A stretch of 17,145 nucleotides of DNA, from the IMG/VR virus record IMGVR_UViG_2737471824_000005, positions 1 through 17,145 of that record; one strand, 5' to 3'. The stretch's first letter is position 1. Every line of letters begins with the position of its first letter. Below are positions 1 to 16,674 of the stretch, in pieces. The notes under the pieces were generated by a model. The model was not told the DNA's origin. It did no database searches and saw only the letters and a program-made list of their open reading frames with translations. Source of the stretch: a virus. Taxonomy: Duplodnaviria > Heunggongvirae > Uroviricota > Caudoviricetes. A program made the position numbers and the translations under genes.

Positions 1-573
1 ATGTTTTGCGAAGAAAAAGTAGCTCAAATGGCTGCATACCTACTTCTTAAGCGAGGTGGGCGCATGGCATATCTGAAATTGATGAAGCTGCTCTATCTGT
101 CTAACCGCAAGTCGATTTTGAAGCATGGCAGGATGATCGGCGAAGATAGCCTTTACTCTATGAAATTTGGTCCAGTCATGTCGAATACGCTGAACTTGAT
201 TCGTGGTAAGGCTGAAGGTATTGGTGACTACTGGTACAACCTGATAGAGACGAACGGGCATGATGTGTTGTTGCGTTCAGATCCGAGGGAAATGGATGCA
301 GACGAGGTCTTTGATGAGTTGAGCCGTGCAGATATCCGGATTTTAGATGAAATCTATTCTCTGTATGGGCATATGAACCGATTTGATCTCGCAAACATGA
401 CGCATTTAGAAAGCGTTTGTCCAGAGTGGCACAATCCTGGCAATTCTCGTAAGCCTATAGACCTGAAAGAAATGCTGATCAGTGAGGGTAAAAGCGAGGA
501 TGAGGCTAATCGTATAATTGGCAAAATGGAAGAATCTCAGAAACTTAAGGAATTTTCTTTGCAATTATCATGA
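1..573 (+). CDS. Panacea/DUF4065-like protein (SocA/PanA-type putative antitoxin); may be N-terminally cut by window edge
   Basis: ORF starts at base 1; N-terminal signature 'AAYLLLKRGGRMAYLKLMKLLYLSNRKS' resembles the conserved helix pattern of DUF4065/Panacea proteins; stop overlaps next start (ATGA at 570-573). Confidence 0.5.
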   Translation: MFCEEKVAQMAAYLLLKRGGRMAYLKLMKLLYLSNRKSILKHGRMIGEDSLYSMKFGPVMSNTLNLIRGKAEGIGDYWYNLIETNGHDVLLRSDPREMDADEVFDELSRADIRILDEIYSLYGHMNRFDLANMTHLESVCPEWHNPGNSRKPIDLKEMLISEGKSEDEANRIIGKMEESQKLKEFSLQLS

Positions 574-989
574 CGGATTATCAGCCATACAGGAAAGGAA
601 CTGTGCTTGCCCCAACTGGGCCATGCAATCATCTTCATGTGATTTGTAATGATCCTGTTTATTACCCCGTTAACGATTGTTATTGTGTTTTAGTTGTTAA
701 TATTTCTAGTATCAAGGATGGTGTCCCCCACGATCCGTCTTGCGTCTTGAATTCTGGTGATCATCGCTTTATCAAGCATCCAAGTTATGTTGTTTACGCT
801 GAAGCTATAATTTGGCGAGTGGATAACATGGTTAGAAAGCAGCGATCGGGTGAGATTTCCGTTCATGATGATATGCCAGAAGCTACATTCAATAGAATTC
901 TGGACGGTTTTGATATATCTGATGAAGTTACGCCAAAGAACCTTAAATTTAAAAATAAATATTGCGTATCATCTATTGATGATGAGTAA
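570..989 (+). CDS. hypothetical 139-aa protein, translationally coupled partner of the Panacea-like gene (candidate toxin)
   Basis: ATG at 570 overlaps upstream stop (ATGA); no domain recognised by eye. Confidence 0.4.
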   Translation: MTDYQPYRKGTVLAPTGPCNHLHVICNDPVYYPVNDCYCVLVVNISSIKDGVPHDPSCVLNSGDHRFIKHPSYVVYAEAIIWRVDNMVRKQRSGEISVHDDMPEATFNRILDGFDISDEVTPKNLKFKNKYCVSSIDDE

Positions 990-1028
990 ACAACAGGAAT
1001 TGTTTCGGTATAGCTTCTGGAGTTTTCT

Positions 1029-1202
1029 ATGGAAGATCAAAAAGCAACCAAGCCACAGGTTAAGTTCGACACAATGAAAGCATTCGCAGGTATGGGTGCT
1101 GCTGTTGAAGTTCTGATGAAGGCTGCTCCTAATGCGTTCACTCACGCTACTGTCTCTGGTAAAGAGCAGCAGGGTAAGCTTCGTCGTCGCAAAGCAGCAT
1201 GA
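1029..1202 (+). CDS. small hypothetical protein (57 aa) 'MEDQKATKPQVKFDTMKAFAGMGAAVEVLMKAAPNAFTHATVSGKEQQGKLRRRKAA'
   Basis: Below the ORF-track length cutoff; GGAG 6 nt upstream of ATG 1029; codon choice biased to GCT/GTT/CGT/GGT; followed by a strong hairpin plus T-run. Confidence 0.35.
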   Translation: MEDQKATKPQVKFDTMKAFAGMGAAVEVLMKAAPNAFTHATVSGKEQQGKLRRRKAA

Positions 1203-1221
1203 TCATAGCTGGTGCTTTTTG

Positions 1222-1250
1222 AAAACCCGCCTTTAGGCGGGTTTTTTCTT
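1222..1250. terminator. putative bidirectional rho-independent terminator between convergent genes
   Basis: AAAACCCGCC-ttta-GGCGGGTTTT hairpin (1223-1246) followed by T-run on + strand; lies directly after the PrtN-like stop on the - strand. Confidence 0.6.
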
Positions 1251-1531
1251 TAGTGATGTTCTTTGCCCTTCTGTTTGCCTGTTCTGACCTGTTCCCACTC
1301 GATACGTCCTTCTTCTCGTCTTTTGTCTATGTATTCCGCAAGATCCTGAATATTGATGCAACGTTTTGCTTTTTGTGATGCACCGATGCGATATGTAGGT
1401 ACAGGCAACTTACAAGCGTTTGCTTTTGCTTCTGCTGTGGCTGGACTCATACCAAAGTATTTTTGACTAACTGCTGAGAGTTCAATGTTTGGGGTATTGA
1501 ATTCAGCCATCAGTAAAAACAAGGTATTCAT
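1250..1531 (-). CDS. PrtN-like (pyocin-activator family) small DNA-binding phage regulator
   Basis: 93 aa; segment 'YFGMSPATAEAKANACKLPVPTYRIGASQKAKRCINIQDLAEYID' matches the PrtN/excisionase-like HTH family pattern as I recall it; GGAG 8 nt upstream of ATG. Confidence 0.55.
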   Translation of the reverse strand: MNTLFLLMAEFNTPNIELSAVSQKYFGMSPATAEAKANACKLPVPTYRIGASQKAKRCINIQDLAEYIDKRREEGRIEWEQVRTGKQKGKEHH

Positions 1532-4477: not shown

Positions 4478-5152
4478 TTAGGCCTTTATTATGTATCTTC
4501 TTGGTTTTCCTGAGAAAATCACTGTACCAATTATAGAGCAATTACCGTTAATCTTAATGTAAGGCTCAGGCCAGTTTGGGTTTAATGCTTTGAGATAACG
4601 CTGTGTTCCATCTTCTATCAACCGCTTGAAGGTGGTTTCGCCTGTATCGTGCATCAATGCAATAACGTCGTCACCGTGGCAGGCAGGGACTTCAGGATCA
4701 ACAAAAATCATGTCTCCCGGGCGGTACTCATCAATCATTGAATCACCAATCACCCGCAAGATATAAGTCATTTCGCCACAGGGTACAGGGCAGGGATAAG
4801 TTTCTGCTGTGCTCAAATCAACCTCAGAATAGCCAACTTCTTTCCATGCTCCGGCCTGTACCCATGATATGACAGGGACTAACGTTATTTGTTTGTTAGT
4901 GATTGAAACGTCAGGTTTTTTTGTGATGTTCGTTGTCTGGTGTTCTTGATCAAGCCATCCGACAGGCAGGTCGAAACATTTTTCGATGTGCCGTGCCATG
5001 CTGTCACCGATATTTTTAGTTGCACCATCTCCCATAAACCTGCTGGTCTGGGTTGGCTCGCGATCAATCATGGTGGCAAAGGAAGAATTCCCGCCAACAC
5101 CATCTCTCAGTTTTCTGGCGTTAGACCGCCGGATGTCATGGACTGTTTTCAT
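4478..5152 (-). CDS. cI: CI-type prophage repressor (N-terminal HTH, C-terminal S24 LexA-like autopeptidase)
   Basis: 224 aa; S24 motifs 'VIGDSM' (Ser) and 'FKRL' (Lys); divergent to a Cro-like gene; start 18 nt from an operator palindrome. Confidence 0.8.
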   Translation of the reverse strand: MKTVHDIRRSNARKLRDGVGGNSSFATMIDREPTQTSRFMGDGATKNIGDSMARHIEKCFDLPVGWLDQEHQTTNITKKPDVSITNKQITLVPVISWVQAGAWKEVGYSEVDLSTAETYPCPVPCGEMTYILRVIGDSMIDEYRPGDMIFVDPEVPACHGDDVIALMHDTGETTFKRLIEDGTQRYLKALNPNWPEPYIKINGNCSIIGTVIFSGKPRRYIIKA

Positions 5153-5169
5153 AAAGAAATTAAAACCTT

Positions 5170-5186
5170 TGTACCGATAAGGTACA
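5170..5186. promoter_or_regulatory. 17-bp operator palindrome in the divergent cI/cro control region
   Basis: TGTACC-gataa-GGTACA, perfect 6-5-6 inverted repeat; a second imperfect copy is centred near 5229 overlapping the cro Shine-Dalgarno. Confidence 0.55.
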
Positions 5187-5242
5187 AGTATCTTGAAGGT
5201 TCATCTCAATCATGTAATATGTATACCGGAGGTACATATTGT

Positions 5243-5443
5243 ATGAAAGCGTATTGGGACTCTTTAACCAAAGAACAGCAGGGTGAGTTGGCCGGAAAAG
5301 TTGGCTCAACACCAGGCTACTTACGGCTGGTTTTCAATGGTTATAAAAAAGCCAGTTTTGTGCTGGCTAAAAAACTTGAGCAATGCACGTCAGGTGCAAT
5401 TACGAAATCTGACTTAAGACCGGATATCTATCCGAAAGATTAA
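5243..5443 (+). CDS. cro: Cro-like small HTH regulator (66 aa)
   Basis: Real start is the internal ATG 5243 with GGAGG 10 nt upstream; product 'MKAYWDSLTKEQQGELAGKVGSTPGYLRLVFNGYKKASF...'; divergent to cI. Confidence 0.6.
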   Translation: MKAYWDSLTKEQQGELAGKVGSTPGYLRLVFNGYKKASFVLAKKLEQCTSGAITKSDLRPDIYPKD

Positions 5444-5474
5444 CAGAACACCTTCAATTTTTAACCACAGAACG

Positions 5475-6038
5475 ATGAGGCTAACCGTGGGTAAGCATCA
5501 CTGGAAAGTAGAAAAACAGCCTGAGTGGTACGTGAAAGCTGTCAGAAAAACTATCGCGGCGTTGCCGGGGGGTTACGCTGAAGCTGCTGAGTGGCTGGAT
5601 GTAACAGAGAACGCTTTATTCAACCGCCTTCGTGCAGATGGCGATCAGATTTTCCCGCTGGGATGGGCAATGATTTTACAGCGCGCGGCTGGCACTCACT
5701 ACATTGCGGATGCTGTCGCACAGTCTGCTGGTGGGGTGTTTGTATCGCTTCCTGAAATTGAGGAAGTAGAGAACGCCGATATAAACCAGCGCCTGCTGGA
5801 AGTCATCGAACAGATCGGGAGTTACTCAAAGCAGATTCGTTCGGCAATCGAAGATGGGGTAGTGGAGCCACACGAGCAGACAGCAATTAATGATGAGTTG
5901 TATCTGTCAATTTCGAAGCTCCAGGAGCATGCAGCACTGGTCTACAAAATCTTTTGCGCTCCAGAAAAGAGTGACGCCCGCGAGTGTGCAGCTCCGGGCG
6001 TCGTGGCGTTTTGTGTCTGTGGAGAAACTAACGCATGA
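5475..6038 (+). CDS. CII-like / phage regulatory protein (family uncertain)
   Basis: Positioned immediately after cro; alternative GTG start at 5487 has GAGG upstream; stop overlaps next start (ATGA). Confidence 0.4.
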   Translation: MRLTVGKHHWKVEKQPEWYVKAVRKTIAALPGGYAEAAEWLDVTENALFNRLRADGDQIFPLGWAMILQRAAGTHYIADAVAQSAGGVFVSLPEIEEVENADINQRLLEVIEQIGSYSKQIRSAIEDGVVEPHEQTAINDELYLSISKLQEHAALVYKIFCAPEKSDARECAAPGVVAFCVCGETNA

Positions 6039-6871
6039 ACAGTTTAACGGCAAATAACCGTTTGTCGCAACAGCTGGTGGTCAGCGTCGCTGAACACCTG
6101 TTGTTACGGCATGAATGCAGATTACCAAATCACCTGGCTGTAAGTAACCACAGAGAACTTTACCTGACTGTGGGGGGCGAGTTGTGCAGGAACTTAACCG
6201 CTGGTTTCGTGACGGAAGAGGACTTTATGTTCATGTTATTCGTTAGGAGCCAGAAACACAGCGCGTTATCTATCTTCGCAAAGACTACCCGCATGAGTGC
6301 TTTAGTCCTTTGTGGAAATTCAGGCGTGATTTTGTTGAGTGTGAAGGACCACCAGCACATTGATTCTGCCATTCCGGGACGTTACACTGTTCAGGCACCT
6401 TATAAAGCGGGTGCCGGGATTGGCGTCCTGGAATTGATCAAGGCGATATATGACGCGCCAGCGTCTTTTTTATCGTCCGCATTTGCTCACATCAAAGTTA
6501 TGGTGGGCTGGGCGGGGGCATCGAAAGATGCGCCGGTTTCCTTGATCACCGGTTACGCCAACCCCGTTCAGTTCACCACCAGCGAAATTGGCGTTTCCGG
6601 TGGTGGAAGTATTTCACCGATCAAGGAGGCTGCCATCATGGCTACTGTCCCAGCCCTCACTCGTCTGAATGATGAAGACTTACATAAACTCAGTTATGTA
6701 ACAACTGCACTACGTGCTCTGCGCAAGGTAACTCTTTCGGATCCGCAGGCACATCAGGTTCTGGTAGAAACCCTTCTTAACTTGCAAGCTGAACGTATTC
6801 GTCTGGCGGATAAGGCTAATTTTCATATTCACCGTCTCCTGAATATCAGCGGAGGGCATCGTCATGCTTAA
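6035..6871 (+). CDS. hypothetical 278-aa protein; C-terminal part may derive from a tape-measure gene
   Basis: GGAG 9 nt upstream of ATG; coupled to flanking ORFs; segment 'LLNLQAERIRLADKAN' resembles my recollection of an internal lambda H segment (unverified). Confidence 0.4.
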   Translation: MNSLTANNRLSQQLVVSVAEHLLLRHECRLPNHLAVSNHRELYLTVGGELCRNLTAGFVTEEDFMFMLFVRSQKHSALSIFAKTTRMSALVLCGNSGVILLSVKDHQHIDSAIPGRYTVQAPYKAGAGIGVLELIKAIYDAPASFLSSAFAHIKVMVGWAGASKDAPVSLITGYANPVQFTTSEIGVSGGGSISPIKEAAIMATVPALTRLNDEDLHKLSYVTTALRALRKVTLSDPQAHQVLVETLLNLQAERIRLADKANFHIHRLLNISGGHRHA

Positions 6872-9718: not shown

Positions 9719-10705
9719 ATGGGTAAAGGCAGCAGTAAGGGGCATACCCCGCGCGAAGCGAAGGACAACCTGAAGTCCACGCAGCTGCTGAGTGTGATCG
9801 ATGCCATCAGCGAAGGGCCGGTTGAAGGTCCGGTGGATGGATTAAAAAGCGTGCTGCTGAACAGTACGCCGGTGCTGGACAGTGATGGGAATACCAACAT
9901 CGCCGGTGTCACGGTGGTGTTCCGGGCCGGTGAGCAGGAGCAGACTCCGCCGGAGGGATTTGAATCCTCCGGCTCCGAGACGGTGTTGGGTACGGAAGTG
10001 AAATACGACACGCCGATCACCCGCGCCATCACGTCGGCAAACATCGACCGACTGCGCTTTACCTTCGGCGTGCAGGCACTGGTGGAAACCACCTCAAAGG
10101 GTGACAGGAATCCGTCGGAAGTCCGTCTGCTGGTTCAGATACAACGTAACGGTGGCTGGGTGACGGAAAAAGACATCACCATTAAGGGCAAAACCACCTC
10201 GCAGTATCTGGCCTCGGTGGTGGTGGGTAGCCTGCCGCCGCGCCCGTTTAATATCCGGATGCGCAGGATGACGCCGGACAGCACCACAGACCAGCTGCAG
10301 AACAAAACGCTCTGGTCGTCATACACCGAAATCATCGATGTGAAACAGTGCTACCCGAACACGGCACTGGTCGGCGTGCAGGTGGACTCGGAGCAGTTCG
10401 GCAGCCAGCAGGTGAGCCGTAATTATCATCTTCGCGGGCGCATTCTGCAGGTGCCGTCGAACTATAACCCGCAGACGCGGCAATACAGCGGTATCTGGGA
10501 CGGAACGTTTAAGCCGGCATACAGCAACAACCCGGCCTGGTGTCTGTGGGATATGCTGACCCACAGCAACACGTCTCTGGCGTGGGGAGCTGGCGTGCAG
10601 TTTAACCCGACCGAATCCGTGGCCATTGATATTGCTTATGAAGGCTCCGGCAGTGGCGACTGGCGCACTGACGGTTTCATCGTGGGTGTCGGTTATAAGT
10701 TCTGA
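9719..10705 (+). CDS. J: truncated tip attachment protein J (first ~283 aa) fused in-frame to the last ~45 codons of lom
   Basis: N-terminus matches lambda gpJ ('MGKGSSKGHTPREAKDNLKSTQLLSVIDAISEGP...') up to '...WCLWDMLTH'; then continues as Lom-like C-terminus 'AWGAGVQFNPTESVAIDIAYEGSGSGDWRTDGFIVGVGYKF'. Confidence 0.8.
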   Translation: MGKGSSKGHTPREAKDNLKSTQLLSVIDAISEGPVEGPVDGLKSVLLNSTPVLDSDGNTNIAGVTVVFRAGEQEQTPPEGFESSGSETVLGTEVKYDTPITRAITSANIDRLRFTFGVQALVETTSKGDRNPSEVRLLVQIQRNGGWVTEKDITIKGKTTSQYLASVVVGSLPPRPFNIRMRRMTPDSTTDQLQNKTLWSSYTEIIDVKQCYPNTALVGVQVDSEQFGSQQVSRNYHLRGRILQVPSNYNPQTRQYSGIWDGTFKPAYSNNPAWCLWDMLTHSNTSLAWGAGVQFNPTESVAIDIAYEGSGSGDWRTDGFIVGVGYKF

Positions 10706-14774: not shown

Positions 14775-16145
14775 CTATGATATCCCTGAAATGTCCTCTT
14801 CAAGCTCTTTTACTGATTTCGCAATTTTAAATTTAAATTTTCTCTCTATTTCACTATTGCTAAGTTTTTTTTCATTCTCTTTCCCTATCCACATAGAAAC
14901 AATTTCTCGTTTCTGAGATATATGTAGATTGTCAAAGTTAGGTATGTATTTAAAAGTCTCCGCTCTACCCCTGCGGAGTTCATAGAAAGTTTTAATCAAA
15001 GACTTTGGTTTTATTTCTGATGAAAGGCCGAATCGGCGGATAAGATTATTGATCGTATGATTAACAGCTCGAAGTTGAGCTGTTGACGTTATTTGTGAGA
15101 AGTACGATACCCATCCCAATCGTTTACCTTCAAACACACATCCCGTAATTCTAAGATTTAGTTTCCACTGACAATATGCAACAGCTCGTTCTTTATCGCG
15201 CTTATTTTTAGCTTGTAGTAGAGCGTGTCTATATGCAGTAAAAATTTTTGCTAAGGATGACTCAAATCTAAGAATGCTCTCATGTTTTATCAATAATTCT
15301 CGATTTTTTATGTGGTAGCCCAAAAAGTTGAAACTTTCATCCAAGCTGCCTACTTTGGATTTTGAGTTCTCTTCATTTAATGGATGTGGGTTTAAATTTA
15401 ATGATTGAAGCTTATCAATGATATGAGAAGCTATTTTTGTTGCTTGATATTTTGGTGTTAAAATAAGAATGTCATCAACGTATCGCATGTACCATATGTC
15501 ATGCATTTTATTGATTTCATCATCGAAATTAGATAGTGATATTTCAGCTAAAATGTTTGATATCGCTAATCCCTGAGGTACTCCTCTGGTATTATTAGGG
15601 ATACCTTTGCTTCCTGTGGTTCCACTTACAGTAGGCACGATTAATGATGATGTTATTAACTGTCTAATTTCTTTTTTTCTAATTTTATTTTTTATTGCAT
15701 TAATTATCAATTTATGTTCAATTGAAGGATAGAAACTTTTAAGATCTATTTTTGCATATTCAGCATATAGACTGTTGTTTAATGCTTCTTTCAATGAGTC
15801 AATTACTGTATGTGGTAGTTTTAATCTGGACTTAGGATATATTTCCGTAAGGCATTCACAGAGAGCTCTAAGAGTAATTCTGTCCCTAGCAGTTGGTATG
15901 GAAATCTGTCTGGGTGTAGAGTTAGCGCCTTTAGATATTAATTTTTCTTTATATGCTGTAAATTTGTAATTGCCAGAATTAACCTTTTCAAAAATGAAAG
16001 TGATCTCATTTTTTATTGTCAAATCAAGTTTTGATGGGCGAATCCGATCTATGCCAATCGCTCCTGATTCTTTGATTTTTTCAGAGTATACTTTTAGAAG
16101 ATTTTTTTTCGAGAATGACTTTTTAAAAATTCTGCTTGCAGTCAT
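14775..16145 (-). CDS. reverse transcriptase, retron-like or UG/Abi (DRT) type
   Basis: RT motifs: 'IGIDRIRPS', 'IDLKSFYPSI' (motif A), 'RGVPQGLAISNILAEISL' (motif B), 'YVDD' at 15471-15482 (motif C), 'FLGY', and thumb-like 'RITG' at 15141-15152; track start 16151 is TTG, first ATG is 16145; overlaps the upstream membrane gene; AT-rich. Confidence 0.9.
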   Translation of the reverse strand: MTASRIFKKSFSKKNLLKVYSEKIKESGAIGIDRIRPSKLDLTIKNEITFIFEKVNSGNYKFTAYKEKLISKGANSTPRQISIPTARDRITLRALCECLTEIYPKSRLKLPHTVIDSLKEALNNSLYAEYAKIDLKSFYPSIEHKLIINAIKNKIRKKEIRQLITSSLIVPTVSGTTGSKGIPNNTRGVPQGLAISNILAEISLSNFDDEINKMHDIWYMRYVDDILILTPKYQATKIASHIIDKLQSLNLNPHPLNEENSKSKVGSLDESFNFLGYHIKNRELLIKHESILRFESSLAKIFTAYRHALLQAKNKRDKERAVAYCQWKLNLRITGCVFEGKRLGWVSYFSQITSTAQLRAVNHTINNLIRRFGLSSEIKPKSLIKTFYELRRGRAETFKYIPNFDNLHISQKREIVSMWIGKENEKKLSNSEIERKFKFKIAKSVKELEEDISGIS

Positions 16146-16674
16146 AGTCAATCCAAAGATATATTAATGGGAGTATATAAAGTGCGGCAGTAATAAATAT
16201 TCGAAGTAATATCCATAAAATAACAATTATTTTTTCTTTTTGTGTGGGGATCCTCGTCTTAAGTCCAACTTGAGTTACCCTTGAAATTTTATCATCTATG
16301 TCACGGTGATTCTCAACCTCATTGAGCAAATTAAAATATTTTTCTTTCTGTTCAAGAGATAACTGTTGACTGGTGGTAATGTCAAAATAGAGTCGCTGTA
16401 GTGCAATATAATTCCTTCTCATGGCTATTGCTCGACCACGAAAATCTAGGTTAGATACGATCAGAGAAATACCCAGTAGAGCCACTGAAAGTATCGCCGC
16501 AACGACATCTGTATTATCTCCTAGAACCTTTGGAAATCGCAACGTTACAATTGAAAGTACCGCACTCAATATAGCATACCAAACGAGGATAAATTGAGAG
16601 TGTTTTTCAAGCCATTCTAGTCGATGGTGCGCTTGGATACGTGCTTTATATGTAAACCAAATATTGTCATGCAT
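16123..16674 (-). CDS. 3-TM membrane protein, candidate effector of the RT system
   Basis: 183 aa; hydrophobic helices 'FILVWYAILSAVLSIVTL', 'VVAAILSVALLGISLIVS' and 'IIVILWILLRIFITAALYILPLIYLWI'; AAGGA SD; 3' end overlaps the RT start by 23 nt. Confidence 0.65.
   Translation of the reverse strand: MHDNIWFTYKARIQAHHRLEWLEKHSQFILVWYAILSAVLSIVTLRFPKVLGDNTDVVAAILSVALLGISLIVSNLDFRGRAIAMRRNYIALQRLYFDITTSQQLSLEQKEKYFNLLNEVENHRDIDDKISRVTQVGLKTRIPTQKEKIIVILWILLRIFITAALYILPLIYLWIDYDCKQNF

Follow-up and report, generated by a model that had tools for sequence, protein, structure and literature searches.

The first 989 nucleotides (nt) of a 17,145-nt stretch of tailed-phage DNA (IMG/VR record IMGVR_UViG_2737471824_000005; hereafter the window) probably form a complete type II PanA-PanT toxin-antitoxin cassette, carried by a lambdoid prophage of Escherichia coli. 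What is known here from sequence and structure models is how the genes are arranged, to which families and fold their products belong, that they stay paired and are under purifying selection, and where in the genome the cassette sits. Toxicity, neutralisation, complex formation and inhibition of translation are properties that we expect by analogy, since they are carried over from a 42-43% identical Pseudomonas pair (PMC8832971).

The 139-amino-acid (aa) product of the second gene, panT, gave no meaningful match in Pfam, NCBIfam, PADLOC or the PDB, whether it was searched as a single sequence or as profiles of 29, 32 and 129 sequences. Weak matches to ICMT and aminotransferase were dismissed as noise, and the sole family match was phrog_19071, whose function is unassigned. 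A profile search of 1.84 billion cluster representatives retrieved 2,988 clusters (at 50% identity) with E <=0.001, 1,267 of them with E <=1e-10, and the family members are almost all 125-145 aa long. Two homologues are T6 rows by accession in Dataset S1 of Kurata et al. (2022), namely WP_025672779.1 (P0110) from Salinivibrio and WP_101821906.1 (P0063) from Chimaeribacter, the latter entered there as 'Yersiniaceae bacterium 2016Iso4'. They are 47-57% identical to the window PanT (profile E 7.5e-47 and 9.6e-59). Another T6 genome, Pantoea septica LMG 5345, also turned up in our homologue scan. Because two homologues are T6 rows by accession, the 139-aa protein is, as judged from sequence, a member of the published PanT cluster T6 and not of a new family. 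An earlier note on this DNA had suggested that it could be a toxin of an unrecognised family, a view that is superseded by this assignment to a published cluster predicted to be MazF/PemK-like. The T6 pairs in Dataset S1 are antitoxin-first with a PanA that has no N-terminal domain, their genes overlap mostly by -4 or -1, and the Enterobacterales among them are Proteus, Pluralibacter, Pantoea, Photorhabdus and Chimaeribacter (PMC8832971).

PanT is 43% identical over 120 aa (E 6e-34) to the 132-aa protein SDU72800.1 of Pseudomonas moraviensis. The PanT of this species (PanT Pse.mor.) proved toxic when made in E. coli; in a 10 x 10 cross-test no PanA other than the cognate one gave rescue, and the toxin co-purifies with PanA. 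It selectively blocks the incorporation of 35S-methionine and thus affects translation, not replication; its neutralisation by PanA is independent of ClpXP and Lon, and HHpred predicted an EndoA/PemK/MazF fold for T6 (PMC8832971). No later characterisation of T6 was found in the literature searched.

The product of the first gene, panA, had been assigned to the Panacea group in the earlier note from its N-terminal helix pattern, and the hidden Markov model (HMM) search bore this out. The protein matches Pfam PF13274 (SocA_Panacea) over residues 27-137 with 67.9 bits (E 1.8e-18), the gathering cut-off being 25.7, and it is identical to RefSeq WP_000458583.1, which is named 'Panacea domain-containing protein'. 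In a 24-member PanA alignment, G57 and P58 of the GPV motif never vary, and V59 is kept in at least 90% of the sequences; this motif is the Panacea signature and is critical for neutralisation (PMC8832971). Beyond the Panacea domain lie a CPEW..P..S..PI motif that is conserved in PanA and, at residues 155-190, a helical tail of acidic character (isoelectric point (pI) 4.9); PanA is without a DNA-binding domain. Against the SocA equivalog model of NCBIfam (NF047745, SocA_antitoxin), PanA scored 13.5 bits where the cut-off is 190, so that it does not qualify as a SocA equivalog. It is 42% identical over 183 aa (E 4e-47) to a Pseudomonas PanA that is paired with a T6 toxin and adjoins a member of the same 90%-identity cluster as the P. 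moraviensis PanT homologue. The PanA of Pseudomonas phage Sirocco begins with MIFSEQKVAQ, the exact ten residues that Kurata et al. put back on PanA Pse.mor. (PMC8832971).

The pairing of the two families is conserved. In a homologue scan with one genome per species, 26 loci in Gamma-, Beta- and Alphaproteobacteria were found to encode a PanT relative. A same-strand open reading frame (ORF), mostly of about 185-195 aa, was located directly 5' of the PanT homologue in 24/24 loci with upstream sequence; the gap from its end to the PanT homologue ranged from -4 to about +60 nt, and all 24 of these ORFs matched PF13274. The identities of PanA and PanT to the window copies co-vary across 28 loci, which are not independent of one another (Spearman 0.86). 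The ratio of non-synonymous to synonymous divergence (dN/dS) of panA is 0.12 against phage Lys8385Vzw and 0.03 against Pluralibacter, and panT has a dN of about 0.09 at saturated synonymous sites. Both genes are, by these substitution patterns, under purifying selection. Because of the unbroken pairing with Panacea proteins, the dN/dS of panA, the dN of panT relative to its dS and the co-variation of identities, we conclude from these comparisons that panA-panT is a conserved, co-inherited and selected unit and not a chance pair of ORFs. The toxin-antitoxin arrangement suggested in the earlier note is thus supported by the conserved pairing, as well as by the resemblance of both proteins to a Pseudomonas PanA/PanT pair.

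The fold of PanT was assessed in two ways. An AlphaFold2 model built with a 47-sequence alignment had a mean predicted local distance difference test (pLDDT) score of 93.9 and a predicted template modelling (pTM) score of 0.87. The best 41 Foldseek matches of this model were all MazF structures (probability 0.97-1.00), and the top named matches in a viral structure library were 'PemK-like protein' and 'Endoribonuclease'. When the 129-member PanT profile was aligned by hhalign with a seven-sequence MazF/Kid/EndoA profile, 104 co-linear columns were obtained (score 22-24, E 0.0025, probability 12%). The seven-sequence profile was itself validated against the PDB (E 1e-48 to 1e-37). None of 200 column- or block-shuffled templates reached the PanT-MazF score, which was about 5 standard deviations above theirs (10.9+-2.2 and 12.1+-2.0). 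No signal was obtained by hhalign against a three-sequence MazF alignment. Because of the AlphaFold2/Foldseek result and the profile-profile score, the modelled fold of PanT is that of MazF/Kid/CcdB, an SH3-like barrel, to which an extra helix (84-93) and an extra C-terminal helix (122-131) are added in the model. The published HHpred prediction is hence independently confirmed.

Across 129 diverged PanT representatives, conservation was 100% for H21, 94% for L22, 98% for D55, 97% for C58, 93% for G63, 98% for H65, 95% for F67, 94% for S72, 99% for Y76, 97% for G113 and 94% for S117, and residue 47 was Ser or Thr in 98%. The window PanT keeps all of the family-wide invariant residues. The earlier note had pointed to a Cys/His-rich half with the motif CNHLHVICNDP...CYCVL. 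This motif is found in the 139-aa protein, and the description holds in part: H21, C58 and H65 hardly vary across the family, but the conservation of H23 and C26 is limited to close relatives. In the low-confidence hhalign alignment, the HLH of PanT falls on the H28-R29-P30 loop of MazF, the loop of the catalytic Arg, with the Arg position set against N20/H21, and S46/S47 stand opposite T52/T53 of MazF. R29 and T52 are the catalytic Arg and Thr of E. coli MazF, and Kid employs a His in catalysis. We infer that His21 and Ser/Thr47 might occupy the positions of MazF Arg29 and Thr52 and support ribonuclease (RNase) chemistry; given the His of Kid, a His-for-Arg swap in the RNase site is plausible by analogy. 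D55, C58, G63, H65, F67, S72 and Y76 have no MazF counterpart in this alignment.

The earlier note also allowed that the module was cut by the window edge. The coding part is complete, because the window PanA equals WP_000458583.1 with the same start codon: position 1 of the window is the annotated ATG of that full-length entry. Only the expression signals fall outside the window, on its upstream side: a Shine-Dalgarno sequence (GAGG) for panA and a TTGACC-N17-TA(A/G)ACT promoter island about 125-155 nt 5' of the panA ATG. This island is kept in E. coli, Lys8385Vzw, Kosakonia and Pluralibacter amid diverged flanks. A search of the region 5' of panA for an inverted repeat or operator gave nothing.

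The two ORFs overlap by ATGA, as the earlier note had described (coordinates in Table 1). The Prokaryotic Genome Annotation Pipeline (PGAP) gives panT a 128-aa product beginning at GTG603, whereas phage records begin at ATG570. Residues 1-11 of the longer product (M-T-x-Y-x-P-Y-R-K-G-T) are kept in homologues of 46-75% identity, and G10 is invariant. Nearly every change in codons 1-11 among E. coli, Kosakonia, Pluralibacter and Serratia is synonymous, and Kosakonia and Serratia have GTT or GTC in place of the GTG603 codon. For these reasons GTG603 was ruled out, and the comparisons place the true start of panT at ATG570, which makes the ATGA overlap real. The same -4 overlap, or one of -1, occurs in most homologous loci and in the T6 rows of Dataset S1.

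The first 1250 bp of the window are 100% identical in many complete E. coli genomes; at least 80% of this region is present in 205/5426 of them, and the free phages SKA5 and Lys8385Vzw carry it at 98% identity, with a PanT that is 100% identical. The gene order in Lys8385Vzw is int (-), a 450-bp gap, panA, panT and orf57 (+), and xis (-). Directly upstream of panA, strain AR_0085 has part of a tRNA-dihydrouridine synthase gene, and the attachment site is therefore placed in the int-panA gap, with the cassette at one end of the prophage. Phage mEp460 has int, orf57 and xis in common with this arrangement at 96-99% protein identity, an unrelated 177-aa gene replacing panAT, and in Kosakonia and Pluralibacter xis follows panAT directly, without orf57. 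Because of these gene orders, panAT is, on comparative grounds, an inserted moron of two genes that occupies a variable cargo slot between attP/int and xis of a lambdoid E. coli prophage, and orf57 lies outside it. As a third component of the module, orf57 was rejected because it is present without panAT in mEp460 and absent beside panAT in Kosakonia and Pluralibacter.

Relatives of panAT occupy various positions elsewhere. In Enterobacter prophages they lie within the tail operon, between K-like and J-like genes. Yersinia phage YeP1 has the pair beside int, the P2-like Pseudomonas phage Sirocco has it between the portal gene and the genome end, and a tailless Vinavirales Vibrio phage carries it at its end. 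In Pseudomonas the relative is chromosomal, and the T6 pair of that genus was scored 'NotPhage' (PMC8832971).

From these data we propose the following mechanism. panA and panT would be co-transcribed from the predicted sigma-70 promoter upstream of the window, and the ATGA overlap would translationally couple panT to panA. The hairpin downstream of orf57 is terminator-like and would close a panA-panT-orf57 transcription unit while also facing the convergent xis. PanA would bind PanT directly and hold it inactive. The acidic tail of PanA may be the part that neutralises PanT, by analogy with the Phd-C tail in PanA of C. doosanense (PMC10440598), but the Panacea core could just as well do so directly. 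PanT, once freed, would most likely halt protein synthesis, probably by cleaving RNA, and we give RNase chemistry an even chance. The benefit to the prophage, we infer, may be stabilisation, defence or both.

Several points weigh against this proposal. The catalytic Arg of MazF is not conserved in PanT, and T6 has its own invariant His/Asp/Cys/His set (each at least 97% conserved) without a MazF equivalent, so that its chemistry and target may differ from those of MazF. No Pfam family matched among 129 diverse members, with PemK_toxin (PF02452) reached by 1/129 at E 0.11; PanT is acidic (pI 5.6), which is unusual in an RNA-binding toxin; and RNase activity of any T6 member was not reported in the literature searched. 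The missing Arg, the own residue set and the lack of a PemK_toxin match would equally suit a MazF/CcdB fold with another activity, such as gyrase poisoning in the manner of CcdB or a metal-dependent reaction via His21, Asp55, Cys58 and His65. However, Ser/Thr47 stands opposite the catalytic Thr of MazF, and a catalytic His is known from Kid. The P. moraviensis homologue, moreover, blocks translation selectively and leaves replication unaffected (PMC8832971), and a non-RNase activity of this kind seems decidedly improbable. We also consider it unlikely, if less so, that T6 has remodelled the MazF scaffold to hold a catalytic or metal-binding set of its own (His21, Asp55, Cys58, His65, Ser72, Tyr76) for a non-MazF target and that the phage PanAT is a Panacea-sensed abortive-infection module, not mere addiction. 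The analogy itself has an indirect link, in that SDU72800.1 is inferred to be the tested WP_083201923.1 from organism, genome and -1 gene geometry, not by accession.

Of the PanT candidates that were tried in E. coli, eight showed no toxicity, among them the prophage-borne T1 pairs of E. coli MOD1 and Salmonella phage Emek (PMC8832971). This counts against the toxin-antitoxin reading and, together with a prophage that appears partly deleted in the window, could mean that PanT is non-toxic or inactive in E. coli and that the pair has some other phage function or is decaying cargo. Such an outcome is improbable in view of two intact genes under strong purifying selection, the identical PanT of the free phages SKA5 and Lys8385Vzw, the full retention of the family-wide invariant residues and the occurrence of the 1250-bp region in 205/5426 complete E. 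coli genomes. It is likewise conceivable that PanA, as in the type VI system SocAB, hands PanT to a protease instead of binding and inhibiting it, since SocA is the founding Panacea protein and the NCBIfam SocA_antitoxin model gives a faint match. The score of that match is far under its cut-off, PanT is modelled with the fold of MazF and does not resemble SocB, neutralisation by PanA did not require ClpXP or Lon, and the complex of PanA Pse.mor. with its toxin is stable (PMC8832971), all of which make this reading highly improbable. A tentative but more credible alternative concerns the role of the pair and is compatible with a toxin-antitoxin mechanism: its main task might be anti-phage defence or superinfection exclusion, with PanA sensing infection and freeing or activating PanT to abort it. 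The cassette sits in variable cargo slots of unrelated temperate elements, a pair of RT_UG17 and SLATT genes is present on the same prophage, and Panacea has been hypothesised to act as a sensor (PMC10440598). However, position in a cargo slot is circumstantial, no PADLOC-DB v2 model matched PanA or PanT (E up to 0.1), defence by a PanA-T6 pair was not reported in the literature searched, and the Pseudomonas pair is chromosomal and 'NotPhage'. We regard defence as the main role as possible but doubtful, and a bind-and-inhibit PanA-PanT toxin-antitoxin pair as the probable reading.

Table 1. Features of the panAT cassette and the adjoining genes (window coordinates).
Feature	Position	Strand	Product or remark	Basis
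panA	1-573	+	190 aa, ATG start; stand-alone Panacea-domain antitoxin (predicted role)	
panT	570-989	+	139 aa, ATG start; toxin candidate of PanT cluster T6, predicted MazF/Kid/CcdB-type fold	
GPV signature codons, G57-P58-V59 of PanA	169-177	+		PanA alignment and published motif (PMC8832971)
ATGA overlap of panA stop and panT start	570-573	+	putative translational coupling	read from sequence
H21-L22-H23 codons of PanT	630-638	+	H21 and L22 kept family-wide	129 diverged representatives
S46-S47 codons of PanT	705-710	+	residue 47 Ser/Thr	same representatives
D55, C58, G63, H65, F67, S72, Y76 codons of PanT	732-800	+	family-specific block	each at least 93% conserved
orf57	1029-1202	+	57 aa, phrog_2741; outside the panAT module	
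Terminator-like GC-rich hairpin and T-run, GAAAACCCGCC-TTTA-GGCGGGTTTTT	1221-1246 (locus L001 9221-9246)			terminator scan
xis	1250-1531	-	PrtN-family excisionase	Pfam PF11112, E 4e-23; phrog_1300 'excisionase'

The neighbourhood of the cassette has further features. The match of orf57 to phrog_2741 (E 8e-36) is function-less, and the gene accompanies xis in lambdoid phages irrespective of panAT; its protein has an Ala/Gly-rich middle and a basic C-terminus. On the other side of xis, a 277-aa gene (1568-2401, - strand) is very AT-rich (GC 0.28-0.33) and encodes an N-terminal hydrophobic segment. It matches phrog_14996 (E 3e-178) and no Pfam or PADLOC model, and it replaces the exonuclease and DUF551 genes of AR_0085, Lys8385Vzw and mEp460, an arrangement shared by 52 complete E. 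coli genomes.

In the segment 4478-10705 the prophage seems to be internally deleted: no more than about 800 bp separate the genes for a Peptidase_S24 repressor, a CII-like protein and Ash (4478-6871) from the tail genes L and K. In one ORF of this segment (9719-10705), a GpJ FNIII-A domain is joined to the C-terminal end of an Ail/Lom outer-membrane protein. Rfam matches on the + strand are the Hfq-binding RNA isrK at 6395-6471 (64 bits) and the C4 antisense RNA at 6496-6583 (82 bits), both within a Phage_ASH-domain ORF (6035-6871); these matches suggest that the early region of the prophage holds an antisense immunity element of the P1/P7 type. The same prophage also has, downstream of its tail-fibre gene, a defence-associated reverse transcriptase (DRT)-class pair, RT_UG17 with SLATT (14775-16674, - strand). 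It comprises a 458-aa UG17 reverse transcriptase (PADLOC RT_UG17 E 1e-158, Pfam RVT_1) and, before it, an overlapping gene for a 183-aa SLATT_5 two-transmembrane effector (PADLOC RTasSLATT E 1.5e-56).

A second PanA-PanT(T6) pair was observed in E. coli (contigs L038-L040), with a PanT variant, P0044, that is 52% identical. It adjoins genes for a 2,791-aa MuF/LPD polyvalent protein and an AntA/P22 antirepressor, and because of these neighbours it is assigned to a different mobile element.

The finding is real but largely ordinary: the window carries an unannotated member of PanT cluster T6, a cluster that has a validated representative. What novelty is left resides in the T6-specific residue set, its substrate and a possible anti-phage role in a tractable E. 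coli prophage. The practical consequence is for annotation, as about 4% of complete E. coli genomes carry a toxin gene that is labelled 'hypothetical protein' and probably starts 11 codons late. Similar problems were seen in relatives. Several Pseudomonas RefSeq entries of PanT are 108 aa long (from Met25), which is 24 residues short and loses the invariant His21. In phage Sirocco, panT (locus L030, 1486-1884) is unannotated and a spurious 44-aa ORF is called on the opposite strand. A PanT family model would name thousands of genes, the roughly 3,000 clusters being without a Pfam or NCBIfam model. The native, genetically tractable E. coli host also suits the questions of what T6 cuts, how Panacea neutralises a MazF-fold toxin and whether phage is sensed.

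The nearest published counterpart is the PanA-PanT pair of P. moraviensis LMG 24280 (PMC8832971), which has the same two families, overlapping genes in antitoxin-first order, a stand-alone Panacea antitoxin without an N-terminal domain and a MazF/PemK-like fold prediction. The Pseudomonas copy, however, is chromosomal with a 1-nt overlap, whereas the window copy is on a lambdoid prophage with a 4-nt ATGA overlap. With MazEF, Kis-Kid and PemIK, the pair has in common a small bicistronic antitoxin-first operon and, for the T6 homologue, inhibition of translation. It differs from them in that PanT gives no PemK_toxin match, does not conserve the Arg, has its own His21/Asp55/Cys58/His65/Ser72/Tyr76 set and carries the two extra helices; the antitoxin here is a Panacea protein, whereas theirs is of the AbrB/SpoVT or ribbon-helix-helix type with a disordered tail. 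The antitoxin of the type VI system SocAB of Caulobacter crescentus has the same Pfam domain, but SocB binds DnaN and is unrelated to a MazF-fold PanT, and SocAB works by delivery to ClpXP where the window pair probably relies on direct binding. The PanA-PanT Esc. col. pair of Shiga toxin-producing E. coli (STEC) O31 (WP_000287252.1/WP_000019185.1; PMC8832971) is likewise a Panacea-neutralised toxin in E. coli. Its toxin is a small membrane-depolarising peptide of another cluster, whereas that of the window is predicted to be a soluble protein of the MazF fold.

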